64,000 nucleotides of DNA from Caldisericia bacterium. GTDB lineage: Bacteria; Caldisericota; Caldisericia; JAAYUI01. A program made the position numbers and the translations under genes. Within the stretch, counting starts at the first letter, position 1; each line of letters begins with the position of its first letter. Positions 23,455 to 43,333 of this stretch are shown piece by piece. The notes under the pieces were generated by a model. It searched no databases, was not told the DNA's origin, and saw only the letters and a program-made list of their open reading frames with translations. Location of the stretch: contig OY771555.1 of assembly GCA_963674785.1 (NCBI GenBank), positions 544,001 through 608,000 on the forward strand, read 5' to 3'.

Positions 23455-23730
23455 TTATCTTGGGACAAAATCTAGAGCATCATAAAGCTCATTAGCTGAG
23501 CTGAGTACATCAATATTTTTCTCAAGTGTTCTGGCTTGTTGCTCTAACATTTCAATATGTTTTTCTATTGGTGTCGCCAGATCAACCCCAATATCTAAAT
23601 TTCTGAGTTTTGGTAGAACACTCTTTAGTCCATCAGCATTCTCCCTGTCAGCCTTGATACACCCTCGCATATTTTTTTCAAGATATGTGGAAATCTCTTT
23701 CAGTTTCTCTCTTACCAATTCAGAACTCAT
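23455..23730 (-). CDS. Small coiled-coil hypothetical protein, last gene of the cluster
   Basis: 91-aa ORF with RBS GAGGGG. Confidence 0.65.
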   Translation of the reverse strand: MSSELVREKLKEISTYLEKNMRGCIKADRENADGLKSVLPKLRNLDIGVDLATPIEKHIEMLEQQARTLEKNIDVLSSANELYDALDFVPR

Positions 23731-23762
23731 AACACCCCCTCACAAGTAATAATAACATATTT

Positions 23763-24095
23763 CTATGAATTGCAAATTTCTTTTGAGCTTATGTTACTCC
23801 TCCCAAACACAATCTTACTCTTCGTATTCTCCTTCACACCTTTCAGAAGCTCCAGTACATCATGGAGTGCTCCTGATGGCAGGCTGACCAAAGCACCGGC
23901 GACAAAACACGAAACAAGGTTCAAGTCACCATGTAGCCACCAGAGGAGTGGGGCAAGGGCAAGCCCCGAGAGTGTCGCAAGGATTCTCCTGTCGACATTT
24001 GGTAAAAGCCCTTTTACAAGCTCAACAACTCTTTCAGAAATTGGTGTCATAAGTCCAACTACAAGCAAAATTTCACTGATCATTTTTTCCTCCAA
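23763..24095 (-). CDS. Putative holin
   Basis: 110 aa with 2-3 hydrophobic helices (ERVVELVKGL..., GALVSLPSGALHDVL) and a basic tail. Lies next to the lysin-like gene. Confidence 0.65.
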   Translation of the reverse strand: MEEKMISEILLVVGLMTPISERVVELVKGLLPNVDRRILATLSGLALAPLLWWLHGDLNLVSCFVAGALVSLPSGALHDVLELLKGVKENTKSKIVFGRSNISSKEICNS

Positions 24096-24589
24096 AATTT
24101 CAAATAATTGTCTTTTTCGTAATTTTCAAATCCCAAAACATTCATCAGCCAGAAAAGTGGTGCAAAAAGGATCCCTTTCCTTTCAATCATCATCTCTGGT
24201 AGTTTTCTTGGTTTATCATCTACATGTGCTACATCAGAATCTTTCCAAAACTCAATTTGTCTTGAATCAATTGATGTATAAACATTTGCCAAAGTTTGAT
24301 GATTATGCCCATCATTTTCAAAAGAAATAACCTGCGAATTGAGGTTATGTCTTGTGCTCAAAATCCTGATAAGTTCAGAAAGTCCGGAATCTTGTGCTCC
24401 ACAGAAAAGCTCCCCTTGATTATTTCTGACACAACCAATGATGATTTTTTCAGTTTCCTTATCGTCCAAGAATTGAATCCAAGAACCATCAGGTCTTATG
24501 ACATAATGAAAATGGTTCTTCACAAAATCCTTTTTTGAAGTAAGGTCGCTATTGTTCAGATATTTCAGTACAATTTTTTTCTCAGACAT
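24080..24589 (-). CDS. Degenerate Amidase_2-like protein with a short stalk/Cu-amine-oxidase-N-like tail
   Basis: HYVIRPDGSWIQ and AQDSGLSELIRILSTRHNL match the amidase scaffold, but the Zn-ligand motifs are not evident. C-terminal IERKGILFAPLFWLMNVLG. Confidence 0.5.
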   Translation of the reverse strand: MSEKKIVLKYLNNSDLTSKKDFVKNHFHYVIRPDGSWIQFLDDKETEKIIIGCVRNNQGELFCGAQDSGLSELIRILSTRHNLNSQVISFENDGHNHQTLANVYTSIDSRQIEFWKDSDVAHVDDKPRKLPEMMIERKGILFAPLFWLMNVLGFENYEKDNYLKFWRKK

Positions 24590-24594
24590 AAAAA

Positions 24595-24876
24595 TTAACC
24601 CAATCCAAACTTTAACAGAATCCAAGAAACAAGTACGGAACCAGCAATTGTAAGGGTTGATTTAAGTATCTCCATAATAAATTCCCATCTTCTTTTACCT
24701 GCAGTTTTTCCTCTTTCATCCAGACATTTTTCAATTTTTGACATTCTTTTGCTGCAGTCTTCAGGGTTATGCAAAGTTTTTCTGATCTGCCTAAACTCAG
24801 CTTGAATTGATTTGCCCATCTGCTCAATCCGATCGGACAAATCAGACATCCACATCCTTAAAGTCTCATCACTCAT
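24595..24876 (-). CDS. XhlA-like membrane protein (coiled coil plus C-terminal TM)
   Basis: 93 aa, RMSKIEK coiled coil, one C-terminal TM helix, lysis-cassette position. Confidence 0.55.
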   Translation of the reverse strand: MSDETLRMWMSDLSDRIEQMGKSIQAEFRQIRKTLHNPEDCSKRMSKIEKCLDERGKTAGKRRWEFIMEILKSTLTIAGSVLVSWILLKFGLG

Positions 24877-25388
24877 TTGACCACATCCAGAATGTTTTTT
24901 GGAATATCTGATAACTCAGGCCAGCTTTTATTTTTCTCAAATGAAATTGCTAAATCTCTCATATGGATATAACCCTCCTCCCACCTGTGAAACCAGCAGT
25001 CAGAGTATTTTGAGGTTTCAGTGTAGAGGCAGGCTACATCAATGTTGAACGCTGAAATCGGTGGCTGGTGGTATGTCCTCCAGATAGTGGTCGCAATCAC
25101 CGGCACAAGGGCAAAATCTTCATGATTCCACGAATCAACATAAATCCAAACTGTTTCTCTATTGATCTGATTATTTCCTGGAATCTCAGGGTCAAGCACA
25201 TCAAGAGTGTCCCTCACAGATTTCAGTTTTGTTACCTTTCCATCGGTGATTTTTATGTGCGCAGGATACTTATCACAGACATGCACATATACGCGTCTGA
25301 TGAGCCTTGGTCTTGCAAACACAAAACCAGAGCAGACAATCAAAACAGCAGCCGTAAACAAAAGTATTATTCTTCTCCCAATTTTCAT
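24873..25388 (-). CDS. Hypothetical exported protein inside the virion operon
   Basis: RBS GGAGG before ATG 25388 and a signal peptide MKIGRRIILLFTAAVLIVCSGFVFA. Confidence 0.7.
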   Translation of the reverse strand: MKIGRRIILLFTAAVLIVCSGFVFARPRLIRRVYVHVCDKYPAHIKITDGKVTKLKSVRDTLDVLDPEIPGNNQINRETVWIYVDSWNHEDFALVPVIATTIWRTYHQPPISAFNIDVACLYTETSKYSDCWFHRWEEGYIHMRDLAISFEKNKSWPELSDIPKNILDVVK

Positions 25389-25407
25389 TCTTCCCCTCCA
25401 AAAAAAA

Positions 25408-26112
25408 TTATGGTGCAGTAATGAGTTGAACAGATAAACTCGGTGTTGATAGAGAGTTCCAGAAACACCACACTCCGATGCCAACAGATGGGACAATATG
25501 TTTTGCAATCGGAATATTGACACTCCAAATCTCTGTTTCAAGCTGGTTTGGTGATACATAAGTATCTAACCCAAGCTGCCAGGGAGATGCCATCGGTGTT
25601 ACTGGTTTATCAGACCACCCGTACCAATTTGTATGTGTAAAATCAAACCTGGGTGCGCCAATATCTGTCACAGAATAATATGGTTGATCGGGTTCATACA
25701 TGGCTGTTGTTAAAACAACAGAACCCATAATTCCAGGATCAGAAGTCGGAGGAACAGGTGGTGTGATTGGGTCTGGCATTGAGGTGATTGAAATTCCATA
25801 TATCTGAGCGAAACCCATAATTGAGATCACTTTCTGCCACTGCTGACAGATTGTTGTGTTACCCGAGACATTTGGTGTTGGTACATACTCAATTCCATCT
25901 ACACCAGAGTTTGTACCTTCAATAAAAACTTCTGTCATTTGCTCAACTGAGTTTTTGACCGTTCCTTTTACATTTTGCACCCATGTTGTTGCATGTTCTT
26001 CTGCTCCTGCAAATGTTGCAAGCGATAGGTCTTCGACAAATCCAACAAAGTTTTTCAGTTCACCATTTGCAGCTCTGCACTGGGACCACGCCACTATCTC
26101 CTGTCCACGCAT
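25408..26112 (-). CDS. Hypothetical protein (tail-tip region)
   Basis: 234-aa ORF with a Pro-rich linker, coupled to the upstream stop (TAATG). Confidence 0.7.
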   Translation of the reverse strand: MRGQEIVAWSQCRAANGELKNFVGFVEDLSLATFAGAEEHATTWVQNVKGTVKNSVEQMTEVFIEGTNSGVDGIEYVPTPNVSGNTTICQQWQKVISIMGFAQIYGISITSMPDPITPPVPPTSDPGIMGSVVLTTAMYEPDQPYYSVTDIGAPRFDFTHTNWYGWSDKPVTPMASPWQLGLDTYVSPNQLETEIWSVNIPIAKHIVPSVGIGVWCFWNSLSTPSLSVQLITAP

Positions 26113-26843
26113 TATGATTGCCCCTTTTCAAATGAAATTGACTCATGTGGAGTATTTGATTCCCATGCGATTGCGGTTGAATGGAAGATATCTGAGGGTT
26201 CTCCCTTCACAAGAAACTGCAATCTTTTTGAGTTTTCCGTGTAACCGTATCTTTCAAAATAGTAGAATTTTCCTGTGGCATGAGATGCCCTTTTGATATC
26301 TGTTAAATCAGAGAAAAAATTGTAGGCCTGCCAGAATGGGAATCCGTTTGTGTAAATCATTCCTGGGTTTCCGCTGTGGGCAATCGGCAGGGAATAAAGT
26401 GTTTTGTCTCTTGTCTCGATATATTCATTCGTATACATCTTCAACTTCATATCAAGACTCTGGAAATGGTATGAGCCTGATAATCCAATGCAATGTATAC
26501 GACCTTTATCCTGAAAATACCCTTCGTACGAAAGCTGATTCAACTGATTCGGATGGACTACCTGCCAATCTGCGTTTGATCTCCTGGGAACAGATGCCTG
26601 GATATGCAAATACATCGGACTAAAATTTGTATCTGATAGCCCACTTATCTCAGAAACATAGTTATCAATGGCACTTTGAAGTTCATCTAAAAGATCAATC
26701 ATTTTTAATCCAAAGGCTTGATAGGCATCAGTCATCTTCCATGAGAGGCTGTCTTCATCGGATAAATCAGTGTTTTTCATGCACTCATAATAAAGCCTGT
26801 TTGCCTCAGCAAGAATTGCAGAAACCACTGGTGGCATAGACAT
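26112..26843 (-). CDS. Hypothetical protein (tail-tip region)
   Basis: 243-aa ORF, N-terminal helical and C-terminal aromatic-rich, translationally coupled. Confidence 0.7.
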   Translation of the reverse strand: MSMPPVVSAILAEANRLYYECMKNTDLSDEDSLSWKMTDAYQAFGLKMIDLLDELQSAIDNYVSEISGLSDTNFSPMYLHIQASVPRRSNADWQVVHPNQLNQLSYEGYFQDKGRIHCIGLSGSYHFQSLDMKLKMYTNEYIETRDKTLYSLPIAHSGNPGMIYTNGFPFWQAYNFFSDLTDIKRASHATGKFYYFERYGYTENSKRLQFLVKGEPSDIFHSTAIAWESNTPHESISFEKGQS

Positions 26844-27133
26844 CAGACCAACCTGCTTTCAATTTCTGTATTTGCGTCAATGACGGTCAAATCTTCAAGA
26901 ATTACTCTTTCAGATTTTGGTTTACCATCAAGATCAAGCCAGGTCTCAGTTGTCATCACCTTCCAACCAGTAACTGTATCAAACCAGATCTGAATATTTT
27001 TTTGTCCCTCATTTTTGTCTGATACCCCAGAAAGATTCAAAAGTTGTGTTACTTGTGGCCAACCGTAATCAGGAATTGTTGAAAGTATCATTGCGGCTGA
27101 TTCATAAGCTTGAAGTTTTTCTAAAATTGTCAT
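26843..27133 (-). CDS. Small hypothetical protein (tail region)
   Basis: 96-aa ORF with RBS AAGGGG and TGATG coupling. Confidence 0.7.
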   Translation of the reverse strand: MTILEKLQAYESAAMILSTIPDYGWPQVTQLLNLSGVSDKNEGQKNIQIWFDTVTGWKVMTTETWLDLDGKPKSERVILEDLTVIDANTEIESRLV

Positions 27134-27155: not shown

Positions 27156-28472
27156 TTAAAGTTGCACAAGCGACGCCCCATCAAACATCGCCACCCCACC
27201 ATCGGTTGAGTTGATCTGTCCATAAAGTCTCACTTCAATTGGGTTTACTCCACTTGCTGTAACAACAGATACCCTAACCCATTTATTTTTGAATGATGTC
27301 ATGCAAGAGGAGGCACAATCGAGTGTTGTTGTCACAGATGAGTATCCAGTTGGGATTATCTCAATCATCGCTTTGCTGTCTGTTTTTACCCAACATGAAA
27401 ATTCAACATATCCACTTGACACACCGGTATATGTCTGTGAATAATAACTCCAATTTGTATCGGGAGTGGTTTCAAGTTGAAGACATGAATCACCGAGAAT
27501 CCCGCTTCCCTCTGTGGTAACTGATGTACCATCTCCACCTTTTGTCCATCCCTCTGGTTCGCCATTATTCCAGTTGGAAAAAATCGGATTTTTAAGCCTC
27601 AGTATACCAGAGCTTTCATCCCTCCTCTCTGAGTAATCGCAAAAACTCGCGGGGAGTAGTGGGGGTTGAGGATTCGAGTTTGCAGGCAAAAACTCATATT
27701 TGCTTATGTGCTGTTCAATGTACCTGTATGTGGCTTTTACAACAGGAGAGTTTTCAACAACTATTGCCCCTGCTGTATGTGAATACTCAAGCGATGAAGA
27801 CAATGTAACTGATCCTGTTGAAACCGATGATACTGTTTTTATTTCATCTTCAAGTGAAGTGTCCCCGGCAACAACAATCAAATCACCCTCTTCAAACCCA
27901 GTTTCAGAAACAACAGATATTGTTGATGCTCCGGCTGAAATATCAGATGAAAGTGTCGTATCCCCCTTGATCACTTCATTGAAAACCACCTTGCCATTTA
28001 CATAATCAATGTAGTAATCGGCAGCAAGGGTTTTCTCCTCACCGTTTACTGTCACATATGGTTCAGGGTCCCTGAGCCAGTCCCCAGTACTTAAACCGTG
28101 GCTCCCGTGCACAGACTGGTAGTTTTTGAAATCTGCAGTTTCAAGTATCTCATCCTCAACAAGAAAGGCGTAATAAACATCACTCACAAACTTTGTCTGT
28201 TGAGGAAGATATGGGTCAAGCCCATCAAAGATATTGCCTGTTGCAAAACATGTGTTTGGTCCAGTCGATGATTCAATTTTGCCAAATATGTCATAATACC
28301 TTATCGTTTCACCCGTCTCTTCATTTGTGATTGAGGTGTCCTGGTAGACATAGGCACCCTCCTCGGATGGCAGGAAGTTTTGAGAGATTATCCCATTGCC
28401 CCATCCGCTTGTTATCTGATCTCTTCCAGCTCCACCCTTAACAGGCTGGATTTTTGGTTTTGATGGTAACAT
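27156..28472 (-). CDS. Putative receptor-binding/tail-tip protein with a C-terminal carbohydrate-binding-like (CBM4/9-type) domain
   Basis: YYIDYVNGKVVF, an inserted beta domain, and C-terminal NPIFSNW..PEGW..FSCWVKT..WVRVSV..FDGASL. Confidence 0.65.
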   Translation of the reverse strand: MLPSKPKIQPVKGGAGRDQITSGWGNGIISQNFLPSEEGAYVYQDTSITNEETGETIRYYDIFGKIESSTGPNTCFATGNIFDGLDPYLPQQTKFVSDVYYAFLVEDEILETADFKNYQSVHGSHGLSTGDWLRDPEPYVTVNGEEKTLAADYYIDYVNGKVVFNEVIKGDTTLSSDISAGASTISVVSETGFEEGDLIVVAGDTSLEDEIKTVSSVSTGSVTLSSSLEYSHTAGAIVVENSPVVKATYRYIEQHISKYEFLPANSNPQPPLLPASFCDYSERRDESSGILRLKNPIFSNWNNGEPEGWTKGGDGTSVTTEGSGILGDSCLQLETTPDTNWSYYSQTYTGVSSGYVEFSCWVKTDSKAMIEIIPTGYSSVTTTLDCASSCMTSFKNKWVRVSVVTASGVNPIEVRLYGQINSTDGGVAMFDGASLVQL

Positions 28473-28486
28473 TTTTCTTATCCTCC

Positions 28487-28993
28487 TTATTCCCAGACAA
28501 TTTCCCAACAAACAGTTTTTGATACTTCATTTGTTTTTGGTTCATTACATTGTGCAATAGAAAAAAGTGTTCCATCTGAAAGGAACAATCCCACTTTTCT
28601 CCAGTTAAAATTCATCTCGGGTGTACCCACAAAATTTGTTATAATCAATTTATCACCAACAGGGTCAACCTGCTCAATCACTCTTTTTGATGTGGTTCTT
28701 CCAAGCGATGTGTCAAATTGTGTTGGAGTTTCTGTTGATGTTGATGCCCCAAATTTCAAAATCTTGAACCTTGGAACAATGCTTCCATTATGGTTTTTCT
28801 GCGGATTTGAGAGAGCAGAAATCACAGCCCTTCTTCCTGCAGATGTTATCAAATTCCTGGTTTCAAAATCATCAATTATCACCTTCCCAAAAAGATGATC
28901 TTTGATGAACATATCCATCTGGGTTTCATTCATCCCCTCAGGAATCTTTCCTTTTATCATCATAAGCCAATTCTTCATCAGTTTCCCTCCCAT
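28487..28993 (-). CDS. Tail collar/fibre-anchor-like protein (DUF3751-like)
   Basis: NLITSAGRRA..., EMNFNWRKVGLF..GTLFS..PKT pattern. Confidence 0.65.
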   Translation of the reverse strand: MGGKLMKNWLMMIKGKIPEGMNETQMDMFIKDHLFGKVIIDDFETRNLITSAGRRAVISALSNPQKNHNGSIVPRFKILKFGASTSTETPTQFDTSLGRTTSKRVIEQVDPVGDKLIITNFVGTPEMNFNWRKVGLFLSDGTLFSIAQCNEPKTNEVSKTVCWEIVWE

Positions 28994-30696
28994 TCGCTTG
29001 CACCAAAAAAACTCAAGCTGAATCCATAGTCTTCATCCGGATTGAGATTTCCAATCTCAGCAACTCCATCGCTTACACCCAGACTCGAACTGATTGTTGA
29101 TATTGAATTTACAAGGTCTCCACCATTGTCTGTATTTTCAAGTTGATGAATCCTCCTCATCACATCTGCCATTAGTGATGAATACAAGTATGGATCGAGT
29201 GTAGAATCAGCAAGGATTCTCCAGGATTCAGGTGTTATTTCGTGAGTAACTTTTGTCAGTTTGACATTATTATGTGTGCCAAATCTGCTCAAGTTTATAT
29301 CAACAAGTTGTCCTGATTTCAGATTTGTACTGTAAACCTCATCACCATTTTTGAACCTATAGACTGTGACCTTGCCCTTAAGTGGTGGATTTTTGTGTTT
29401 TTCCAGAAGGTAGTCAGCATATTTATAAAGCACACTCCAGTCAGTGATAGAAGGCCTATTAACCTTCGGAAGGTCAATCTGCACCCCATATTCAGAAACG
29501 GATTCTTCAGATACCTCTGTTATATAGGATATCTGCATCTTCCTTTTATATCTTATCATGTAACCAAGAAGGACATCCTCCACTGTGGGTGATTCATCTG
29601 GGTCAACCTGATTTCTGAGTCTGTTGCCAATAAACCCGGCATTGGAAGCTACAGCCTGAGATTTCACATAGACATATCCACCATCAGAAAGGTCGTCTGC
29701 TTCATCAACATAGATGGCATCAAAATCTGTTATTATGTTGTGACTTGTGATGGCAAGAGTTTTTGACCCAAGGGTTACCCCAGAACTGGTTCCAACTGTG
29801 GCTGCTAGACTTTCAGTAGATGAAGCCGCCATCCATACACTCTGCCCTGCAATGTCTTCGCTTTTTCCACAGTCGACCTGAACAATACGACCGTTTTCTA
29901 AAACCCCATCACCTCTATCAAAAACCTTGAAAACTTTGACACCATCATTTTTATACCAAATAGGTATCTGCAGTGGATAGTTATCAGAGAAAAACAGCTG
30001 CGTTGTTTCTTCAAGATCATCAACTGAAACATACTGCTCTGTGAAATTCTTGGCATCACCGACCCCACCTTCAACCCAGACTCTATTTGCAAGAGTTGTA
30101 TAGTCCCTTGCAAACGCTGTTGTTTTGCCCTTTGAAGTATCAACCACATCATCCGTGATATCTTCCATGACTTTCTCAATGAAAACCGGGCCAAAATAGT
30201 GGTCTCGTTCCGAAGAAACACTCCATGACCAGCCCATTAAATCAGCAAGCGTTGATAGACACTGATTCAAACTTGTTCCATTGAATCTGAGTGTTGCTGT
30301 TTCTGTAGTTTCTGTAACTGCATTTACTGTATGTTCTGGCAAATATTTCTGAATAAGCGATTTGTAGATTTCTGAAATCTGCCAGTCTTTGAAATGTTCT
30401 TTTACTTGCCTGTATCCGCATTCTATTGACCAATCACGGGCAATGATTTTTTGGCTTGTTCCAGTGAGTTCCTCAGTGTTACCGGGATAACCCTCAACCC
30501 TCCCGCCAAAAATCAAAGCGTCTTCCACATCCCTTATCTCAACAACCTCAAAGGCTGGAATCTCAAGTTTTTCACCGACCTTTAAAAAAAGCTGAGCTGT
30601 TGTTGCCTCAGAAATCGCATCAATAATCATCACACGCTCAACCCTTGCTGTAACATCAACAGAACCGAGGGTAATGCTTCCTAGTCCGCAAAACAT
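28978..30696 (-). CDS. Tail hub/Tal-like baseplate protein
   Basis: Follows the TMP. LIFGGRVE, L..LADLMGWSW.V, ANRVWVEG, SVSEYG, LKSGQLV.I motifs. Confidence 0.75.
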   Translation of the reverse strand: MFCGLGSITLGSVDVTARVERVMIIDAISEATTAQLFLKVGEKLEIPAFEVVEIRDVEDALIFGGRVEGYPGNTEELTGTSQKIIARDWSIECGYRQVKEHFKDWQISEIYKSLIQKYLPEHTVNAVTETTETATLRFNGTSLNQCLSTLADLMGWSWSVSSERDHYFGPVFIEKVMEDITDDVVDTSKGKTTAFARDYTTLANRVWVEGGVGDAKNFTEQYVSVDDLEETTQLFFSDNYPLQIPIWYKNDGVKVFKVFDRGDGVLENGRIVQVDCGKSEDIAGQSVWMAASSTESLAATVGTSSGVTLGSKTLAITSHNIITDFDAIYVDEADDLSDGGYVYVKSQAVASNAGFIGNRLRNQVDPDESPTVEDVLLGYMIRYKRKMQISYITEVSEESVSEYGVQIDLPKVNRPSITDWSVLYKYADYLLEKHKNPPLKGKVTVYRFKNGDEVYSTNLKSGQLVDINLSRFGTHNNVKLTKVTHEITPESWRILADSTLDPYLYSSLMADVMRRIHQLENTDNGGDLVNSISTISSSLGVSDGVAEIGNLNPDEDYGFSLSFFGASEWEGN

Positions 30697-33714: not shown

Positions 33715-33723
33715 TTCTCCATT

Positions 33724-33752: not shown

Positions 33753-33777
33753 GATGTTTTTAAGATATCTTGTGTGC

Positions 33778-34695: not shown

Positions 34696-34758
34696 ACTAC
34701 TTTCACCTCGAAGGTTATTTTCAGTTACACATGATAAAAACAACTTCATTAAAAGGAA

Positions 34759-35321: not shown

Positions 35322-36554
35322 CTAGTAGCTCCCATTTACGAGTTCTACTTTGAGTGCAAAACCTTCCTCATCATCATAAACAGCCATTGCATTCCATGAT
35401 TGAGCAATTCTTCTGCCTATTTCTACTGGCACTGAACATTTTGTCATGTATACATTAGGCATAATAAGTTTTAATGAGTAATTATTCAATTCAGAATTAC
35501 CAATTGTCTCTCCAGTAGTTGTGATTGTGGCTGCAAATGGGGTTGTTGTCTGTTTGACATCATATTCAGAACCGCTTGCTCCAAGGAATCTCTGAAGGTC
35601 TGTGTCTGAATCAAAGATAGCCTCAGCTGAAAAATTCGCAGAAACTCCACCTGGGCTTCCCTTTGTGGTAAAGATTCCTGATTCGAGAGTTCGGTCTGCT
35701 CCCTCAAGACCATTTGAGATGTCGATTTTGAGAGACTTTACGATTCCAGTTTTGTTTGTGCTATCAAACTCAACTACGGTGTCTCTTGTGAAAAGAGGCT
35801 CAAGGTCTGTGTAGCTTGGAGTGGAATTTGTATTGTGTATGCTCATTTTTGAACCGATGAAACTTGTTGTGGTCATGATGGGTTCCATAGCCTGGTAATC
35901 AAGATTCACGGATTTTGCGGTCATTCCTGAGAATTTTGCGGTGCTACTACCTTCTGGTGTTCCAAGGTCGAGTTCCCAAGTGTAGCTTGGAAGTTCACTT
36001 GTATCGCTGAAAGTGTGTTTATAGGCAGGTGTTGTGTTTTCATCCACTGCATCACCAAGGTCATGGTCAAACAAAAGTCCATTCCCACTGCCTTCTGCTT
36101 CAATCATGAGAGTATTTGTAGAGATGTTTGTGATTTTTGCAAACTCACAGGTTGACCCTGTATCGATTGCGATATAATCACCAACCACAAGTCCTGTGGC
36201 ATCTGTTACATCAAATACTGTATCTCCTGCGATCACTGCTTCTGCAAGTGTTGTTTGCACGCCACCTGTTGGTCTCTCAGGAAGTGCCGTTGTTGTTTTT
36301 GCCCCGAACAACCCATACAGAAGTTCACAGGTTGCATCGGGGTCTGCTTCCATCTTCAGTGAACCACTCTGATTCCAACCACGCTGGACGACCTCTGATG
36401 ATTGAGCTGATCCACCGATTCTAAATCTTCTTTGCATCTCACGGCCCCAGTCCATGGAGCATGAGAGTACCTTCCAAAAATTATCAGCCGATACTTCGGT
36501 TCCGTATGTTGATTCTCTTCCGAAACCAAAATAGCTAGATTCTCCTTTTGGCAT
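35322..36554 (-). CDS. Major tail tube protein (non-contractile, phage_tube_2-like) with an inserted domain
   Basis: GFGRESTYGT N-terminus, LLYGLFG, YKHTF..LPSYTWE, IDISNGL motifs. Confidence 0.85.
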   Translation of the reverse strand: MPKGESSYFGFGRESTYGTEVSADNFWKVLSCSMDWGREMQRRFRIGGSAQSSEVVQRGWNQSGSLKMEADPDATCELLYGLFGAKTTTALPERPTGGVQTTLAEAVIAGDTVFDVTDATGLVVGDYIAIDTGSTCEFAKITNISTNTLMIEAEGSGNGLLFDHDLGDAVDENTTPAYKHTFSDTSELPSYTWELDLGTPEGSSTAKFSGMTAKSVNLDYQAMEPIMTTTSFIGSKMSIHNTNSTPSYTDLEPLFTRDTVVEFDSTNKTGIVKSLKIDISNGLEGADRTLESGIFTTKGSPGGVSANFSAEAIFDSDTDLQRFLGASGSEYDVKQTTTPFAATITTTGETIGNSELNNYSLKLIMPNVYMTKCSVPVEIGRRIAQSWNAMAVYDDEEGFALKVELVNGSY

Positions 36555-36661
36555 AATTATTTCTCCTTTAGTGATTATGAAACTTGAAAACCATCCTTAT
36601 CTCGAATGGTTTCGATTAAAACCTATATCAAATTTCCTCTTATCTCTCCTGCATTTCTCTA

Positions 36662-36871
36662 CGTCATTCCCGCGCAGGCGGGAATCTAGGGCATAAAAAA
36701 ACGCACATGTTTTTCTGGCCAGATTATTTGACCGACACAATGAATTCCTCAATAGAAAACTCATGTTTCAAATTAACCCTGGATGCCGTGTCAAGCACGG
36801 CATGACGTGGTGGGATTACAAGACGATTGTTTTCCCCACTCCTTTCTGAGGAGAGGGGTTAGGGGTGAGGA
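36662..36871. repeat. 146-bp REP doublet (36662-36807) plus a CCCC..GAGAGGGGTTAGGGGTGAGG-type repeat
   Basis: CGTCATTCCCGCGCAGGCGGGAATCTAGG ... CCTGGATGCCGTGTCAAGCACGGCATGACG. Confidence 0.85.
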
Positions 36872-36874
36872 GTA

Positions 36875-37279
36875 CTATATCTTCACCTCAACCACGACCA
36901 TCAGTTGTGACTGTAAAATAAAGCTGTTTTCTGAAAAGATCGGGTTTCCGATAAACTCTGTGGTCACCAAAGATGATGGATTTGAGAGGAAATTTTTGTT
37001 CCTTACAACACTTTCAATCTCTGCTGTCAGCTCTGAGAGTTTCAGATAACCATCCTCTTTTCCTGTTAATCCCTGAACCATCACTGTTAAGACAAGAGGA
37101 ATGAGTATATTTTTCCCACCTGCAAATGTCTCTGGTTTTTCTGTTGTCTTTGCAAGATGCAAACAACATGCGGGATATTTTGGCACAGCTTGCTTGAGGC
37201 CAATGAATATGAGCACATCATCCAAAGCTTCAGCCAAATTTGTTTTTGCTTCAAGCAATAACTCTTTATATGGTGTCAT
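36875..37279 (-). CDS. Tail terminator/completion-like protein
   Basis: 134 aa, lies between the neck genes and the tube. KYPACCL motif. Confidence 0.65.
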   Translation of the reverse strand: MTPYKELLLEAKTNLAEALDDVLIFIGLKQAVPKYPACCLHLAKTTEKPETFAGGKNILIPLVLTVMVQGLTGKEDGYLKLSELTAEIESVVRNKNFLSNPSSLVTTEFIGNPIFSENSFILQSQLMVVVEVKI

Positions 37280-37655
37280 TTTCTCCCCCCATCAAAAACC
37301 TCAGTAGTATCTCCTTCACCTTATCAACCCATCCTGGAGGCATGTTCATGAATGACCTTTTTGGAATTGTTTTTGAGCCAAACTCGTGGACAGCCGCATA
37401 TGGGAGCTCAGAAAGTCCTGTGCCAATCTCTGCCCTGTTTCCAGCAATAGTAACTGAGGTTGCTGCATTTTTGAGACTACCAGATTTATGCAAGTTTTTT
37501 CCACCAGTCCATTTTGGTCTTCCTCCTGATGTGAAGTTTTGATTGATTTCACTTACCACAAACGCTGATGAATCCTTCAAAGCATCATAAGGATTTGTGA
37601 TCTTCTCCTTTAAATCCGTGAGGATTTTTGTTACAGAAAATGTTATGCCTAACAT
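37266..37655 (-). CDS. Phage virion morphogenesis protein (Mu gpG/P2 gpS-like)
   Basis: NFTSGGRPKW, LHKSGSLKN, PYAAVHEFG, IPKRSFM. Confidence 0.85.
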   Translation of the reverse strand: MLGITFSVTKILTDLKEKITNPYDALKDSSAFVVSEINQNFTSGGRPKWTGGKNLHKSGSLKNAATSVTIAGNRAEIGTGLSELPYAAVHEFGSKTIPKRSFMNMPPGWVDKVKEILLRFLMGGENDTI

Positions 37656-38017
37656 ATCCAAAGCTCTCCCCATGTCTCTTTTTTTGTGAGTCCTGATTCT
37701 ATTGTTCCACCCACTATACCCTTCAGAGTTTCAAGACAGCGTTTATATTTTCTGTTTGCTGTCTCAAAAAATCCCCCGTTTTCTTCACTGTAGAGAAACT
37801 CCAGAATCAATGAGACAGCAAGTTCAGTGGAAAGTTCATTAATCAAATCGGGTACAGGTTCAGTGATTATGAATGTTTCAGATAGATTTGCATCGATTAT
37901 ACGGTCTGCTTTTGTGATGGCATGTTCAACCGAAAATTCGGTTTCGGATTGATCAGGCACAACCGACGAGTCGATTCCTTTCAATGATTTTCGTACATCA
38001 AGAATAGTTGTATACAT
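37649..38017 (-). CDS. Head-tail connector (Mu gp36/DUF1320-like)
   Basis: MYTTILDV, AI..AD.IIDANL, VPDLI..LS.ELA, Y...L..LK.I..G motifs. Confidence 0.8.
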   Translation of the reverse strand: MYTTILDVRKSLKGIDSSVVPDQSETEFSVEHAITKADRIIDANLSETFIITEPVPDLINELSTELAVSLILEFLYSEENGGFFETANRKYKRCLETLKGIVGGTIESGLTKKETWGELWIC

Positions 38018-38059
38018 TGTTACTCCTTTGTTTCTCTGCTTGAATCACATGTTTTCTTT

Positions 38060-38204
38060 CGACTTTCCAACGAAAGCTGCAATCCAGGATTATTCATGAT
38101 TCAGGCATTTCTACGGGATAATCTTTGATAAAAGAACAATAGTCTCACCAAACAAAAAGAAGACGATTTTCTTTGCCCTGGTTACCCGTTTTCACGGGAA
38201 GACG
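38060..38204. repeat. Diverged ~145-bp REP doublet
   Basis: ...AATCCAGGATTA + spacer + TTTGCCCTGGTTACCCGTTTTCACGGGAAGACG. Confidence 0.7.
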
Positions 38205-38248
38205 TAGTAGGGAATATGAGAGTTAGCATTAATTAACGCTGAATTCCT

Positions 38249-38407
38249 CTACTTCTTCCTCTTCTTTTTGAAGATTTTGAAATCAGGATTTCTTTTCAGA
38301 TATTCAATTTCATCTGCAGAATTTGTTGAAAACGGAATCCCATTTTCAGCTCTTCTCCACCTTGTTACAACTGATTTTTTACTGCCAGAAAGTACATATC
38401 TCGGCAT
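38249..38407 (-). CDS. Small basic YqbF-like protein after the capsid gene (absent from the ORF track)
   Basis: 52 aa MPRYVLSGSKKSVVTRWRRAENGIPFSTNSADEIEYLKRNPDFKIFKKKRKK. ATG lies 2 nt after the capsid stop. EYL..NP.F recalls skin-element YqbF. Confidence 0.6.
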   Translation of the reverse strand: MPRYVLSGSKKSVVTRWRRAENGIPFSTNSADEIEYLKRNPDFKIFKKKRKK

Positions 38408-38409
38408 GA

Positions 38410-39585
38410 CTACTTGACCTTCAAGCTATCAAGCACAACAACAGCATCTGGGTTTTCAAGTGCACAATCACATCTGAGAGTAACAACAAAGTATGTAACA
38501 CCTTCTGTCGCACGGCGTTCGGTTTCAATGTTGATGTCTTGCTGGATTCCAAGGATGAGGTTATTGTAGTCACAAAGCATGGAGAATGTTCCATCAAGTG
38601 TGACTTCAACAACTGCTTCACTTGAGTCGTGATCATATTCAAGTGCAGTTTTTAGTGTGAGGTCATTACTTGATTTTGAATCAATCTCTCTTACCTCACG
38701 TTTTGCACCAGACCCAATTGTGATTTTGTCACCTGCTGTGAAGTTTGTGCCATCGGCGACAGTGATTACTGTATCAGTTGCACTTGCCGAAGAGCCAAGG
38801 GTTGATGTTGCACCAGAGGCAACCGCAACTGGAAGGTCGTTTGGTAGAAGCGCACATGGAGCAAGCGGAATCCTTCCAAATGAAAGTAGTGAACTTCCTG
38901 TGATTGCACTATCTCCAAGTGGTGTTGTTCTTGTGCCAATTACCTCTACAAAATCCTGATAAAGATCATCAGAAAGGATGAATCTGAGATTTTCACGATT
39001 TCCGCGATATTTGCTTGCAAGTGTTTTGATTGCTCTTGAAAGCTTTTCTTCATCGATGTTTCTATCATCAAATGATGTGCAATCGACAACGTGACCATTT
39101 GAAATGGCATCAGTATACCAGCCATCAATCTGCTCCCAGATATGGTTTTTTGTTTCATCACCGGTGTCTTCGCCCATGAGGTAGGCATACTCGAGCTGAT
39201 TACCAATCTGGTTTGCGACCATCCTCATGAGATGATCTGCAAATGCCTCTCCCTCAATGTTGTCCATCATCGCATCATCTGCAATTGGCACAACAGCCTT
39301 CATTGTTTTTGAGGTGAGTGTAATCTGGTCTGTTGTCACACTAACAGAGTTGTCCTGAGTGGAACCATATGTTCCGGGTCTCAAAACCTCTTCACCGATG
39401 CCGAGCCTTACAAGCTTTTTGGTATTGCTCCTCATCTTTTCAATTCTTGCGTTGTCTTTGAGGAATGATGCATCGATGATGTAATCGATGAATCTATCTG
39501 CATCCTCTGTTGAAAGCCCTATTCGAGTTGCAAAAGTGCTTGATGTTATTGCTGATTTTGAAAGTAATTCTTCGTTTGTTATCAT
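38410..39585 (-). CDS. Major capsid protein (HK97 fold, PBSX XkdG-like) with an inserted domain
   Basis: LSTEDADRFIDYI, DNIEGEAFADHLM, QLE..L.GEDT, QIDGW, NLILGIQQDINIE, LRCD..E..DAVV. Confidence 0.9.
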   Translation of the reverse strand: MITNEELLSKSAITSSTFATRIGLSTEDADRFIDYIIDASFLKDNARIEKMRSNTKKLVRLGIGEEVLRPGTYGSTQDNSVSVTTDQITLTSKTMKAVVPIADDAMMDNIEGEAFADHLMRMVANQIGNQLEYAYLMGEDTGDETKNHIWEQIDGWYTDAISNGHVVDCTSFDDRNIDEEKLSRAIKTLASKYRGNRENLRFILSDDLYQDFVEVIGTRTTPLGDSAITGSSLLSFGRIPLAPCALLPNDLPVAVASGATSTLGSSASATDTVITVADGTNFTAGDKITIGSGAKREVREIDSKSSNDLTLKTALEYDHDSSEAVVEVTLDGTFSMLCDYNNLILGIQQDINIETERRATEGVTYFVVTLRCDCALENPDAVVVLDSLKVK

Positions 39586-39605
39586 ATTTTTTCTCCCAAT
39601 TATTT

Positions 39606-40334
39606 TTATGAGATGAGTCTCTGAATTGATTCCCATTTCATGGTTTTCTTGCCCCCAGCCTGACCTTCGACTGATTTTTTGGCTGTCAGTTTTGATTCAA
39701 TCCCTGCTAACCTTTCTTTCAATGATTCAAAGTTATCATTGAATTTCTCAAAAATCTCGAGAAGGCTTTCAATTGCTCCCTCATTTTTTTTGACTTTTTC
39801 TGTAAGCTCCAGTAAAAGCTCCTCAGGAAGCTTATCCTTCTCTTTTTCTTCTTCTGGTTTCATGACTTTTCCTAACCATTTTTCGAACAATTCACTTTCC
39901 TCCTTTTTTGTATTTTCTACCCAAATAAATTCAGCTTCGTTGTTTGCGGGTTGGTCAACAACAGAGATTTCTGCAATCGTCATTTTTGTGACAACATTCG
40001 CCATCCTGCCATTTACAAATCTGCGGGTTCTGTCATGCACAATTCCACCGATTGAAAATGCTCTGTAATGACGATTTCTAATCATTTCAAGACAGTTTTT
40101 ATCGGTGATTTCGGCACCCACAAGAAGTCCTCGTCCTGGAATTACAAACAGATACTTTGCTATTCCGACGGTTTTTTGGTGATGCATCTCACGGATATTT
40201 CGCCATTTTTTGTAATCACCGATTGCACGACTTACTGCTACTTCAGAGATGATGTCGCCCTCTTTATCGAGTGCATCTGTTGTTGCAAAACCCCAAACAA
40301 GACTACTTTTTACATCTGTTTTTTTGACTTCAAT
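39606..40334 (-). CDS. Prohead protease/scaffold (XkdF-like), start probably ATT at 40334
   Basis: The frame stays open and protease-like upstream of the listed ATG (LVWGFATTDALDKEGDII..IREMH). Also FSIGG, EISVVDQPAN and a coiled-coil C-terminus. Confidence 0.8.
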   Translation of the reverse strand: MEVKKTDVKSSLVWGFATTDALDKEGDIISEVAVSRAIGDYKKWRNIREMHHQKTVGIAKYLFVIPGRGLLVGAEITDKNCLEMIRNRHYRAFSIGGIVHDRTRRFVNGRMANVVTKMTIAEISVVDQPANNEAEFIWVENTKKEESELFEKWLGKVMKPEEEKEKDKLPEELLLELTEKVKKNEGAIESLLEIFEKFNDNFESLKERLAGIESKLTAKKSVEGQAGGKKTMKWESIQRLIS

Positions 40335-40420
40335 ATTTACCTCCCAGTTTTTTTAATATTGTCATTTACTACAATTTTTCGCCACTCCCAGTCTCTCTTT
40401 GCTTTTCCAGTTGCCCTGCA

Positions 40421-40670
40421 GTCACCCCGGGCGAAGACCCGGGGTCTATAGCATAAAAAGGCGTGCTCTTTTTTATCAGGTAAAATTGCCCATCCAATAT
40501 CAAGAATTATAAAAATAGAGAATCCATGCATCAAAAGTAACGCTAGATGCCCGATCTGTCATCCCGCACTTGATGCGGGACGGGCATGACGGGTGGAATA
40601 GCCCGGAATGAAGAGTCTAAAAAGCCCTCCCTCATCAGGGAGGGATGGTGACGAAGTCACCAGGGAGGGT
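40421..40670. repeat. Composite REP element between portal and protease (doublet, nested REP, CCCTCCC hairpin)
   Basis: The spacer 40450-40541 is the reverse complement of the 19431-19520 spacer with few mismatches. Confidence 0.88.
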
Positions 40671-41857
40671 TACTCCAAACCCATCCTCTTCCTGACCTCA
40701 TCAGCCGAAATAACCCCTGCATCAATCAATATCTTGTCAATCTGTGCGAGTCTGAGTTCATCCTCAACATCAAGCTCATTGAAAACAAATCTGACAGATT
40801 TTACACCCAAACCCTGATTTATGATGAGTCTTGTGATTCTTTCAGAGAGAAATCTTTGACGTGGTGAGATTATGAGATTTTTGAAGTTTGTAAGTTGTGT
40901 TTCACCTGTTCCACCACCAAGATTTCCACTCTCGATTATCCCAAGCAGGTGTGGTGGGACACCATGTGCAACAACCATCAAATCACGATTCATCATTCTA
41001 TAATCAGCAAATGATGCGTCTTTTGGACTAGCAGAAATTGGTTTCAGTTCGCCCGTTATCCCTTGAGGAAACTGCAAAACCATCGTCTTGTGTGGGTTTC
41101 CTTTGAGGTCAGACAGATATCTTGTAAGTTCCTCTTTGTCCTTTGTTGATAAGGTACCACCAGAAATCATGAGGCAATACTGCGGTGTGGCGTTGTTGTC
41201 AAAAAAATTCACATTGTAGTCACGTGCCATAAGATCACCCATCAAAGCACCAATTGCAGGAACAGAATCTGGCATCCCGTAAAATGAGGATGCGGGATTA
41301 TATTTTGCAAGGTGGATGATTTCAGACATCGGGAGATTTGTTGTCTCATCAATTTCAATTGTTTCTGCGCCAAACCTTGCGAACTCTCTTTTTTTACCAT
41401 TCCTAATCTGCAAAAATCCACCATCCCTCTTCACTCTCACTGTTTGTGCTGGGATGTGGAAAAGCCGACTTATTCTTCCAAGAGAATCACGTGTGACTTC
41501 AAGATAGCTGTTGCCAAGACATTCAAGGTCGATCATCACAGAACTTAATAGCTCAGAGAATGAAAGCTCCGGGTTACAAGAACCTAAAAATTCAGAAACC
41601 CTTTCTCTATCGATGGGATTTGGTGTAGACCCATTATCAACAAGCCTCCATCCAAGACCAACAGTGTATTGAGCCTTGATGTTTACGGCACGATAATATA
41701 TCTCACTGCTTCTGTAAAGCTCTAGAAGCCTTTCAAAATCAAGGTACTCTGGTGGGCTTATCACCCCATCAATCCCAGCGAAGGAATCTTCAATCTGTCT
41801 TGAATTATCAACCGTCAACTTGTCTATAAAATCCAGTTTTGCTGTTTTAATCATCAC
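40670..41857 (-). CDS. Portal protein (PBSX/HK97 family)
   Basis: DLECLGNSYLEV.RD, LFHIPAQTVR, EIIHL.KYNP...YGMPD, FFDNNATP, AHGVPPHLLGI, EVRKRMGL. Confidence 0.93.
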   Translation of the reverse strand: MMIKTAKLDFIDKLTVDNSRQIEDSFAGIDGVISPPEYLDFERLLELYRSSEIYYRAVNIKAQYTVGLGWRLVDNGSTPNPIDRERVSEFLGSCNPELSFSELLSSVMIDLECLGNSYLEVTRDSLGRISRLFHIPAQTVRVKRDGGFLQIRNGKKREFARFGAETIEIDETTNLPMSEIIHLAKYNPASSFYGMPDSVPAIGALMGDLMARDYNVNFFDNNATPQYCLMISGGTLSTKDKEELTRYLSDLKGNPHKTMVLQFPQGITGELKPISASPKDASFADYRMMNRDLMVVAHGVPPHLLGIIESGNLGGGTGETQLTNFKNLIISPRQRFLSERITRLIINQGLGVKSVRFVFNELDVEDELRLAQIDKILIDAGVISADEVRKRMGLE

Positions 41858-41871
41858 CTAGCCCCTTTCTC

Positions 41872-43263
41872 TTAGAAAAAATCAACCCTTGCGCATCTAT
41901 TCAAACTTGTACCAAGTCTCACAGCCATCTCGAAAGCATCAATCCTGTCATCATGACTTCCTTTTGGAAACTCCAGAAGCTCATCCCTGAATGCCTTATG
42001 ACCTTTGCCGATAAAGACTTTACCTTCCTCAAACAAAGGTTGCAAAGTCCTTATTCTTGCTTGCTTTGATACCTTAGTGTGCGAAATTGGCACAATTGGA
42101 GTTTCAATCTGTTCTCTCAGTCTTTCAATCATCACTCGCTGATAACCAACATCCTCTATTCCGAGTTTTTCCGGATTCCATTCATTTACTTTCCTGATTA
42201 TCAATTCTTGTTGAGTCAAAAATGTGAATCTGCCAGAAACCTCATCTAAAAGAAACCAGTTTCCAGCACTGTTCACACCAACCACAACAAGCGAAAAAAG
42301 GTCGGCATTTTCAGAATCAGATATTGCAAGATCGCACGCCATATAGACATTCATGTCAGCCCTTTCAGGCTGGTTCATCCAGTGTTTTATCCATTTCTCC
42401 TGAAAGATATTCCCGGTCATCCCGGCAGTATCATTCTGCTTTTCTCGGTCAAACATGAGTGATCCTGAAAGCAATCTGTCAACAAGCAACCTGTTTATGT
42501 TCCATTCTTTTCCCCAAAGGGTTTTCCATGTACCGGTTTTATCAACTGAAAGTAGCTTCCCTTCAGGTGAAAAGTGAAAGAATCTTTCTATCGGTTCGCC
42601 ATTTTCAATTGCCTTTTCGAAATTATCTGGGTAGTTGATAATCGCACGCTCAACCTGAACACTCCAAGCGGGATTACCGATAAATTCAGAGGAAACATCC
42701 TCAGGATGTTTCCTCGTGCCGAGAACAAGAAGCCTTGTTTTTGGCAATGCAAGCTGAAGTAGCGACCCTTTAAACCATTCAGAAATTTTTGCTCGAGAGG
42801 TTTTTGTGCTACTGTTCATCTCATCGATGATGTCATCACAGAGGATAAAGTCGTAGTGCATTCCAGTTATCGATCCACCAACCCCACATGCTGTAATTGA
42901 TGGCTCTTTGCATATATTTGCCAAAAGCCGCAATTCGGTTTTATTCTTTGGTTTGCCGATTTCAAATTCAGGGTAAGAAGAAAGCTTTGTCTCAATCGTG
43001 TTTTTAATCTGGGTAAGAAGTCTTGCTGCAAGTGTTTCTGTTTTTGAGACTATCAAAACCCTTGTTTCCGGATTCATCTTCAGAATCGAAATGATTCCAA
43101 GCAGTCCCCATATTGTTGTTTTACCATGTCCACGAGGGGAAAGCTGAAGCCTTCGATCCCAATTGCCATTATACGCTTCAAGCCATTTTTTGTGATGTGC
43201 TGCAAGTCGAATATCAAGAATTTCGGCAATCTCAAGTGATGTATCCAAAAGGGAGCAACCCAT
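41872..43263 (-). CDS. Terminase large subunit
   Basis: Walker A PRGHGKTT, Walker B ITGMHYDFILCDDII, GTRKHPED, nuclease CDLAIS...D and HDDRIDA. Confidence 0.93.
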   Translation of the reverse strand: MGCSLLDTSLEIAEILDIRLAAHHKKWLEAYNGNWDRRLQLSPRGHGKTTIWGLLGIISILKMNPETRVLIVSKTETLAARLLTQIKNTIETKLSSYPEFEIGKPKNKTELRLLANICKEPSITACGVGGSITGMHYDFILCDDIIDEMNSSTKTSRAKISEWFKGSLLQLALPKTRLLVLGTRKHPEDVSSEFIGNPAWSVQVERAIINYPDNFEKAIENGEPIERFFHFSPEGKLLSVDKTGTWKTLWGKEWNINRLLVDRLLSGSLMFDREKQNDTAGMTGNIFQEKWIKHWMNQPERADMNVYMACDLAISDSENADLFSLVVVGVNSAGNWFLLDEVSGRFTFLTQQELIIRKVNEWNPEKLGIEDVGYQRVMIERLREQIETPIVPISHTKVSKQARIRTLQPLFEEGKVFIGKGHKAFRDELLEFPKGSHDDRIDAFEMAVRLGTSLNRCARVDFF

Positions 43264-43305
43264 TTCTCGCCCCCTTTTCATTGATATAGTTTTTTGACAT
43301 ATCAT

Positions 43306-43333
43306 ATAGTATCTATAATATATTCACTGTCAA
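43306..43333 (-). promoter_or_regulatory. Promoter TTGACA-N16-TACTAT driving terL
   Basis: About 40 nt upstream of ATG 43263. Overlaps the inverted repeat TTGACA(43294)...TGTCAA(43333). Confidence 0.65.

Follow-up and report, generated by a model that had tools for sequence, protein, structure and literature searches.

A candidate domesticated particle locus of phage origin in a family of Caldisericota

Here we describe a cluster of phage structural genes in the chromosome of a Caldisericia bacterium (GenBank assembly GCA_963674785.1, contig OY771555.1), at positions 23455–43333 of a 64,000-nucleotide stretch (contig positions 544,001 to 608,000; hereafter the window, in whose numbering coordinates are given). 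The cluster has the gene content of a tailed particle, sits at a fixed locus, has diverged together with its hosts, and is under purifying selection in both its coding sequences and its recoding signals. On balance we favour the view that it derives from a phage, has been fixed in the chromosome and inherited vertically since before the family split into at least three genera, and has kept only the genes for building and releasing a tailed particle. As a domesticated particle locus it has good support; as a gene transfer agent (GTA) it is unproven.

Results

The cluster comprises 22 open reading frames (ORFs), every sizeable one on the minus strand and numerous neighbours overlapping by a few bases. 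They encode a large terminase (terL), portal, prohead protease, HK97-type capsid protein, neck proteins, tail tube, frameshifted tail assembly chaperone, tape measure protein (TMP), hub, tail-tip proteins and a small lysis cassette. The initial annotation, drawn from the letters of the window, had described a head–neck–tail–lysis set of about 20 kb between host-type flanks, and searches with Pfam and PHROGs bear it out. On one side lie genes for a Fic protein, an NDP-sugar dehydrogenase, SH3 proteins, an ABC transporter and TldD/PmbA; on the other, terL side lie those for the surface protein p851, ispD, serS and a histidine kinase.

We compared the window's genome (G000; 2.23 Mb, a single contig) with others in a set of 93 genomes of the phylum, in which family f1 consists of G000 and 10 others, and six other families make up the remaining 82. 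Within f1 the window's genus holds G000–G003, genus g2 holds G004, G006, G008 and G010, and genus g3 holds G007 and G009. A profile of the capsid protein matched nine of the 93 genomes—G000 and eight of its ten family members—and none of the 82 outside the family. When every window protein was searched by tblastn, seven of these eight relatives, spread across three genera (G002 from the same genus, both members of g3 and all four of g2), proved to carry the full set from terL to g234, the last gene of the family-wide core, in identical order; identities range from 82% (capsid) down to about 30% (TMP), with head proteins at 64–82% and tail-tip proteins at 30–56%. The synteny that had been proposed as a check is thus found in seven other genomes of the family, and in part in an eighth, beside the same host gene. 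The hub protein is similarly confined: a word-based search of 5.8 billion proteins placed it in only 13 clusters, every named one labelled Caldisericota, and the record titles of related loci name Caldisericia, Caldisericales or Caldisericota metagenome-assembled genomes (MAGs). The g2 form of the hub, a cluster of 34 member sequences (among the 15 listed, ten are of 555 amino acids (aa), one is of 554 aa and four are shorter or partial), occurs on contigs of up to 220 kb, and chromosomal contigs of 100–220 kb bear the gene cluster in many MAGs.

The chromosomal site is also shared. In all seven terL-bearing relatives terL lies adjacent to, and divergent from, an orthologue of p851 (43600–46155, plus strand), a host surface protein with an NHL/beta-propeller and a C-terminal Cu_amine_oxidN1 anchor domain. 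Orthologues of p851 also occur in all three family genomes in which terL, portal and hub were not detected. We considered p851 as a part of the element and rejected this, because full-length orthologues with host flanks persist in G001 and G005, where the cluster was not found; p851 is a marker of the site, not cargo or a particle gene. Genome G003 has both flanks of the window, the NDP-sugar dehydrogenase gene on one side and p851, ispD, a TRAM protein, a 2977-aa protein and serS on the other; genera g2 and g3 have the further flanking genes F18 (DUF4388) and F19 in common; and gyrB lies 11–56 kb past the tail end of the cluster in G000, G002 and G007. In contigs from two other studies the cluster is 90–99% identical, with differences mostly at third codon positions. 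A contig of sequencing run X1 spans 4.1 kb of the left flank into the cluster and breaks in the repeat between the portal and protease genes (40421–40669). No contig bridged the cluster; the joints seen fall in dispersed repeats and have sides of 20–34 letters.

Assemblies often break at or near the terL–p851 border or inside p851, as at the end of G003:C15, the start of G005:C18, in G009:C31 and L084, and in several contigs of 16–21 kb; these breaks may reflect strain heterogeneity at a hypervariable surface-protein gene. The p851 gene of G009 runs off its contig end and contains no stops.

We asked whether cluster and host share a history. A tree of rpoB and gyrB and one built from ten concatenated cluster proteins agree on three monophyletic genera, and both give (G002,(G000,G003)) in the window's genus, although with three clades and few taxa such congruence is a modest test. 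Agreement with the host phylogeny, which the initial annotation had named as a check, extends to genus-level and within-genus branching, bar a conflict among short branches in one genus that is weighed below. Genomes of one genus are by no means close, with rpoB 80–82% identical, yet the seven relatives keep the order from terL to g234.

Selection on the cluster was gauged from the ratio of nonsynonymous to synonymous divergence (dN/dS). Synonymous divergence (dS) is saturated for many genes between genera, and for G000 against G002 and G003, and the ratio is usable in g2 only. Among the four g2 species all 15 measurable cluster genes give dN/dS of 0.01–0.17 at dS of 0.06–0.70; the flanking host genes p851, F18, F19 and F25 give 0.04–0.09 at dS of 0.11–0.81, and rpoB and gyrB have dS of 0.34–0.89. 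Terminase and portal, at 0.04–0.06, are under selection as strong as that on the tail genes. The purifying selection that had been surmised is thus present, at synonymous divergences like those of host genes. Inheritance is vertical and selection purifying, with losses in two to three of the 11 family genomes. In one pair of genomes the dS of p851 exceeds that of the cluster (0.81 versus 0.06–0.48), which may likewise stem from strain heterogeneity at this surface-protein gene.

The recoding signal of the chaperone genes is equally conserved. Tail assembly in this locus would employ a chaperone pair (34759–35321), consisting of a G-like protein of 111 aa and a −1 frameshift product. The 111-aa ORF ends TCG GAA AAA AAC TAA, with the slippery heptamer A_AAA_AAC at 34989–34995, and the −1 frame stays open for 76 codons further, the classical G/GT arrangement. 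Both the heptamer and a conserved −1 extension (LIEEALFG...LGLWP..GGL) are present in nine of nine loci, so that the preserved frameshift seen in the window alone recurs in every locus compared.

No less telling is what the locus lacks. As the initial annotation had it, no integrase, repressor or replication family was found in any window ORF scanned, and the window contains no tRNA and no Rfam family. The whole genome has one tyrosine recombinase of the Phage_integrase family, at 1.885 Mb and 1.3 Mb from the cluster, and none of the large serine type. Eight loci are free of recombinases both within and nearby, and in none of the eight is there an ORF between terL and its divergent neighbour. 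The cluster is single-copy, with one portal in the genome and no second copy of any cluster protein. It does not resemble an intact temperate prophage, having no integrase, tRNA, repressor or replication module, with the search for repeats having spanned 33300–40700, inside the cluster. It is rather a phage-like structural cluster devoid of genes for integration, lysogeny and replication, with the same content in seven relatives.

Close relatives among viruses were also sought. No capsid protein in 50,697 deposited phage records exceeds 30% identity, in keeping with the expectation that viral databases would hold no close kin. One of 66 IMG/VR loci is the same element (the 15.7-kb contig L084, capsid 72% identical, all genes in order); the other 65 match in portal and/or capsid only, at 25–51% identity over the best segment, plus one short match to g451. 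A second lineage is represented by P0029, a protein labelled Caldisericia that aligns with the whole of the hub at 30% identity and was found neither in IMG/VR nor in any of the 93 phylum genomes searched. It is borne by L185, a 20.8-kb contig from activated sludge (16,004 of 20,806 nucleotides examined, the first 4.8 kb lying outside), in the order tube, chaperone, tape measure (1931 aa), hub, g168-like, g451-like and g234-like proteins and M23 peptidase (P0029, P0175–P0181). This lineage, on contigs of 18–21 kb, is about 30% identical, with its tail genes in the same order, and may be either a free phage or a second fixed element.

We next consider the individual genes, all on the minus strand, beginning at the packaging end. 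The large terminase TerL (41872–43305; Terminase_6C 1e-11, phrog_38 3e-86) likely starts at its third ATG, at about 43263, after AGGGGG, and its profile matches the solved large terminases 8dgc and 4bij. In an alignment of eight orthologues the Walker A motif (PRGHGKT/S) is conserved in the seven rows covering that part, and Walker B (CDD) and the acidic residues of the nuclease are invariant in all eight; by this motif conservation the enzyme looks active. The portal gene (40670–41857; Phage_portal 4.8e-39, phrog_12 1.6e-60) is the genome's sole one. It is followed by an S78 prohead serine protease (39606–40334, annotated as an ORF at 39606–40187; Peptidase_S78) with a coiled, scaffold-like C-terminal tail. 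In genus g2 there is an additional 96-aa hydrophobic ORF between portal and protease (L024 4874–5164, with orthologues in G006, G008 and G010), and the protease ORF ends before the coiled part, which forms a separate 92-aa ORF in G006 and G008.

The HK97-type major capsid protein (38410–39636; Phage_capsid 2e-8, phrog_1623 9e-66) is 68–84% identical across the family and carries an inserted immunoglobulin (Ig)-like domain at about residues 250–340. Its profile matched no solved capsid in the PDB at E<=0.01, a database that includes structures of RcGTA, the GTA of Rhodobacter capsulatus. One Ig-like domain is common to the capsid, the tube and g451, and it also matches giant host surface proteins of the relatives, of 1485 and 3024 aa. 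Directly 3′ of the capsid gene lies a basic 52-aa ORF (38249–38407), with small ORFs at the equivalent place in relatives. The neck is represented by a Mu gp36-like head–tail connector (37649–38017; PF07030 5.4e-6), a neck1 or tail-completion protein (37266–37673; phrog_26 1.8e-9) and g134 (36875–37279), which has no family match in Pfam or PHROGs and is conserved in eight relatives.

The tail tube protein (35322–36554; 410 aa, with an Ig-like domain; Phage_tube_2 8.4e-15) is 50–78% identical in relatives. The TMP (30702–33317; 871 aa) is assigned from position and length, having no family match; its N-terminus is conserved in all relatives, while its length ranges from 642 to 871 aa. Since no sheath gene is recognizable, the tail is probably non-contractile; neither a sheath nor a baseplate-J or regulator family was found among the 22 ORFs with Pfam and PHROGs. 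Protein g572 (28978–30696), which has remote profile relatives and no direct Pfam match, was searched exhaustively: of 924 proteins matched at E<=1e-3, six are full-length relatives, all from records labelled Caldisericota, and the others match residues ~8–230 only. Of ten such partial matches scanned, seven bear YQBQ-like, Phage_GPD or Prophage_tail families, mostly below Pfam cut-offs, and because these partial relatives bear hub families we read g572, indirectly, as a baseplate hub (Tal-like) protein. A profile search of the PDB with it gave no match.

Downstream of the hub come the tail-tip proteins g168 (28487–28993; weak similarity to a tail-fibre N-terminus, phrog_3737 1.3e-5, with PF12571 below cut-off), g451 (27156–28511), whose sole PDB profile match is its Ig-like part, the small tail protein g96 (26843–27133; conserved in G002, G007 and G009), g243 (26112–26843; conserved in seven relatives, no family match) and g234 (25408–26112; 44–51% identity in seven relatives, no PDB match). 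Beyond this core the genes are more local. A secreted or membrane protein, g228 (24873–25388), is specific to the genus, with orthologues in G002 and G003 only, and its start is likely an internal Met preceding a signal-anchor-like segment; g93 (24595–24876) is a small protein with a C-terminal transmembrane helix. Protein g181 (24080–24625), whose lytic activity is putative, is a divergent relative of the cluster's Amidase_2 endolysin (E 3e-12 to the g2 gene); in g2 g234 is followed by a gene whose product joins an Amidase_2 endolysin to the cell-wall-binding domain of the lineage. The holin-like g110 (23763–24095) has two hydrophobic helices and a 65% identical orthologue in G002, and the 91-aa ORF g91 (23455–23730), without an orthologue in any relative, is specific to this genome, its membership of the cluster being doubtful. 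The only Pfam-recognizable Amidase_2 gene of G000 lies at G000:C1:1365212–1365808, 0.8 Mb from the cluster, and its product is 35–43% identical to the g2 cluster endolysin, versus 24–26% for g181.

Turning to the non-coding sequence, we find a sigma-70-like promoter box (TTGACA-16-TACTAT) upstream of terL at 43306–43333, on the minus strand. In all eight terL-bearing loci a box of the form TTGACA/TTGACT-16/17-TACAAT/TACTAT stands in this place, while the terL–p851 intergenic regions otherwise align poorly across genera, leaving the box alone recognizable. The window as a whole holds promoter-like sites (41 found versus 41.9 expected in shuffles) and terminator-like sites (14 versus 15.3) at chance level; the host-style promoter of the initial annotation therefore does not rise above chance in the window alone and gains its credibility from conservation. 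Of four host repeat doublets said to sit between genes, three are confirmed there as dispersed host repeats resembling repetitive extragenic palindromic or miniature inverted-repeat transposable elements (REP/MITE): in the portal–protease gap (40421–40669; 26 matches elsewhere in the genome), the g134–tube gap (36655–36813; 20) and the menA–TMP gap (33444–33550; 22). The fourth, in the gap between capsid and g122, has one match elsewhere in the genome and is not confirmed.

A host gene is embedded in the cluster as well, as had been reported. Between the chaperone and TMP genes lies menA (33778–34749, minus strand; TIGR00751 above cut-off), encoding 1,4-dihydroxy-2-naphthoate prenyltransferase, and after it a strong terminator-like hairpin with an 11-bp stem and T run (33728–33752, minus strand). 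All four genomes of the window's genus have this menA as their sole UbiA-family gene, always at this locus, and it stands between chaperone and TMP in G000, G002 and G003. Because it is inside the cluster in these three, and the UbiA genes of g2 and g3 are on other contigs than the cluster, we place its entry into the operon in the ancestor of the genus. The intergenic host repeats and the embedded sole menA fit as signs of long residence.

Several features of the surroundings may be recorded here. The C-terminal Cu_amine_oxidN1 domain of p851 has about 90–118 matches per genome in the family and resembles the lineage's general cell-envelope anchor; the g2 cluster endolysin bears a piece of it. 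A Fic-domain gene (22131–23321) between the cluster and the NDP-sugar dehydrogenase gene is missing from the syntenic G003 flank and is probably a later insertion. At 784–2738 an AAA_21 ATPase and RloB-like pair forms a two-gene module of the abortive-infection type, and in g2 an OLD-family AAA_15+TOPRIM nuclease lies just beyond the cluster endolysin. The 2977-aa protein (49818–58751) has one recognizable Ig-like/Glucodextran_B domain near its C-terminus and is 72–76% identical in G001 and G003.

Discussion

We consider it likely that this cluster is a domesticated particle locus maintained by its host. The evidence fits a virus that was captured before the family diversified, was stripped of its early genes and has been kept by selection at the level of the host. 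Of the initial proposal, a host-maintained GTA-like particle, the evolutionary half is upheld by synteny, congruence, selection and the lack of close viral kin; its functional half is unsupported. That particles are produced we infer from the genes. That these would show genuine GTA behaviour, delivering random host DNA to recipients, is a proposition that we hold at somewhat less than even odds. The more specific picture is of an independently evolved Caldisericota GTA, a siphovirus-like particle that lacks a small terminase, has stood next to a surface-protein gene ever since the family arose, is driven from a conserved promoter of housekeeping type and packages random host DNA; this we advance tentatively.

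Gene content suggests how such a particle would be made. Transcription would start from the housekeeping-type promoter in the terL–p851 intergenic region; heads would be built from the portal, the S78 protease with its scaffold-like tail and the HK97-type capsid protein; and neck proteins would couple them to a non-contractile tail, in which the 410-aa tube surrounds the 871-aa TMP with the aid of the frameshifted chaperone pair, ending in a gp27/gpD-like hub with four or five tip proteins peculiar to the lineage. The holin-like protein and amidase would release the particles. Judging from the missing genes, the large terminase would most probably fill the heads with any cellular DNA, as in GTAs: random packaging is suggested because there is no small terminase and no self-replication.

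A number of observations weigh against this reading. The absence of a small terminase itself rests on two Pfam families, Terminase_2 and Terminase_4, neither of which was found. The hairpin after menA stands between the head genes and those of the tail tip. Nor is the composition wholly that of the host: the GC content of the cluster is 41.2% and that of the genome 39.1% (97.8th percentile of same-size windows), and the cluster's tetranucleotide distance is at the 92nd percentile. Within g2 very short branches conflict, the cluster tree joining G004 and G008 and the host tree joining G004, G006 and G010; the cluster dS of the pair G004/G008 is 0.06–0.48, against 0.89 for rpoB, which suggests some exchange between close species.

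To these must be added losses and damaged copies. In G001 (96% complete) menA is the immediate neighbour of p851, and no terL, portal, capsid or hub turned up, which on the sequence is a deletion that left only the embedded menA. In G003 an insertion sequence (IS) transposase pair of the IS3 family (HTH_Tnp_1 and rve; L068 7180–8663, G003:C42) replaces the genes from TMP to g234, apparently an IS-associated deletion of the tail-tip module; another contig of that genome starts in the portal–protease repeat, and the assembly yielded neither terL nor portal. In G005 a contig starts 85 nucleotides before p851, and no cluster gene was found in this 96%-complete, 120-contig MAG. The TMP gene of G009 has a TAG at codon 512, and in a 95%-identical strain the hub frame is lost after residue 357. 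The window's own protease gene is anomalous too: some 50 conserved N-terminal codons lie in frame upstream of the annotated ATG, up to 40334, and no ATG, GTG or TTG stands between the preceding stop and this conserved N-terminus. A GGGAGG lies 5 nucleotides ahead of an in-frame ATT (40334), and an A7 run (about 40319–40325), in which one extra A would suffice to restore the frame, comes after an out-of-frame TTG (40333); a Logan contig of run X1 has identical letters. A rare start codon, an error in the homopolymer or a genuine lesion might each explain this. Most ORFs are intact, as the initial annotation had it, with the protease N-terminus as the exception; and of the outcome it had named as speaking against domestication, patchy presence and disrupted genes are indeed seen (G001, G003, G005, the G009 TMP and the near-strain hub), while relaxed dN/dS is not.

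Comparison with known systems helps to place the locus. The properties of RcGTA-type agents of Alphaproteobacteria (Rhodobacter capsulatus, Caulobacter and others), in part as given in bioRxiv 10.1101/2024.11.15.623857, include a head-to-tail operon of 15–20 kb that runs from terminase, portal, protease and HK97-type capsid through adaptors, tube, chaperones and tape measure to hub and tip; a non-contractile tail; no integrase or replication genes; and an inheritance that has stayed vertical across divergence at family level or deeper, with purifying selection and sporadic losses. In all of these the Caldisericota cluster is alike. It differs in having no small-terminase gene ahead of terL, in containing its lysis genes and in the embedded menA and host repeats, and it shows no detectable membership of the RcGTA sequence family: only the generic Phage_portal, Phage_capsid, Terminase_6C and Peptidase_S78 were matched, with TMP, hub and tip giving no Pfam match. 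Since the host is a member of the Caldisericota, domestication would be independent of that of RcGTA.

With defective prophages of the Bacillus subtilis PBSX/skin-element type the cluster shares a chromosomally fixed, non-replicating particle locus with its own lysis genes, and the remote relatives of its hub carry the YqbQ/XkdQ-like family. PBSX has a contractile tail of sheath and tube and its own repressor and late regulator, whereas no sheath or regulator is recognizable in the Caldisericota cluster, which does not fall into the PBSX-like contractile class. Nor is it a tailocin, a class with tail genes only, for it includes genes for capsid, portal, protease and terminase, and selection on these is strong. 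Domesticated defective prophages likewise persist as remnants under purifying selection at a fixed locus; the Caldisericota locus differs in keeping a complete virion and lysis set, rather than isolated genes, across inter-genus divergence.

Other cases make independent domestication a familiar event. Among the lineages listed in bioRxiv 10.1101/2024.11.15.623857, VSH-1 (Brachyspira), BaGTA (Bartonella), Dd1 (Desulfovibrio), VTA (Methanococcus voltae) and the Faecalibacterium candidates were each domesticated independently, and the last were likewise spotted as near-ubiquitous conserved structural operons. For all of these production or packaging was measured; the Caldisericota system is known from its genes alone and is likened to them by description. 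In the literature searched, no paper was found linking GTAs or such an element to Caldisericota, in line with the initial annotation, which knew of no described GTA in this lineage.

Three rival explanations can be set against a host-maintained GTA-like particle. The first accepts that a particle is made and holds that its selected role is PBSX-like killing or competition, or programmed lysis and DNA release, with heads as a by-product. The remote hub relatives with their YQBQ/XkdQ-like and gpD-like families lean this way, as do the lysis genes within the cluster, an arrangement also present in PBSX and VSH-1, and the tail-tip proteins, which are lineage-specific and evolve faster than the head, as expected of receptor-facing parts (30–56% versus 64–82% identity). 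PBSX, moreover, packages 13.4-kb host DNA fragments and yet acts as a tailocin, according to bioRxiv 10.1101/2024.11.15.623857. However, none of the 22 ORFs encodes a recognizable sheath or other contractile-tail protein, and the selection on terminase and portal, as strong as that on the tail genes, is hard to explain if packaging is irrelevant. We regard this explanation as unlikely.

The second, that the cluster is an old defective prophage, functionless and slowly decaying, whose selection signal is a leftover or an artefact of few genomes, would account for the loss or damage in G001, G003 and possibly G005, the protease start, the TMP stop of G009, the hub frameshift of the near strain, the GC offset and an operon interrupted by repeats and by menA with its terminator. 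Neutral decay, however, should bring dN/dS near 1 and many stops, and the ratios in the four g2 species lie at 0.01–0.17 over a dS of 0.06–0.7; the order from terL to g234 is kept in seven relatives despite rpoB identities of 80–82% within a genus; the recoding signal is found in nine of nine loci and the promoter box in eight of eight; and hub lengths in g2 are steady, with ten of the 15 listed members at 555 aa and one at 554. We find it improbable.

The third, a still mobile virus or satellite that draws its functions from a helper or from small ORFs and re-inserts beside p851, could appeal to the assembly breaks at or near the cluster borders (G003, G005, G009, L084 and the 16–21-kb contigs), which variable context or copy number might produce, to the second, ~30% identical lineage with the same tail order on 18–21-kb contigs, and to the one copy listed as viral in IMG/VR and the short-branch conflict in g2, but it is very improbable, given that no recombinase lies in or near eight loci, that the whole genome has one and the window no tRNA, that cluster dS equals host dS rather than falling below it, that the run X1 contig passes from 4.1 kb of left flank into the cluster with joints only at dispersed repeats, and that the cluster sits on 100–220-kb chromosomal contigs in many MAGs.

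Only a handful of GTAs are known, almost all the well-studied ones being alphaproteobacterial, and each independent case shows how a virus becomes an organ of its host. Caldisericota are common in anaerobic digesters and sediments, and the phylum has a single known cultured species; if the particle system is family-wide, it would offer one of few handles on horizontal gene flow or cell-to-cell antagonism in these bacteria. The locus also lends itself to comparison, with intact copies from three genera, one copy that lost its tail tip to an IS, a clean deletion that spared only menA and a second lineage at ~30% identity; together these could date the steps of domestication and loss. If it is a GTA, its integration into the chromosome would be so deep that the only menaquinone prenyltransferase gene of one genus sits in the middle of its operon.

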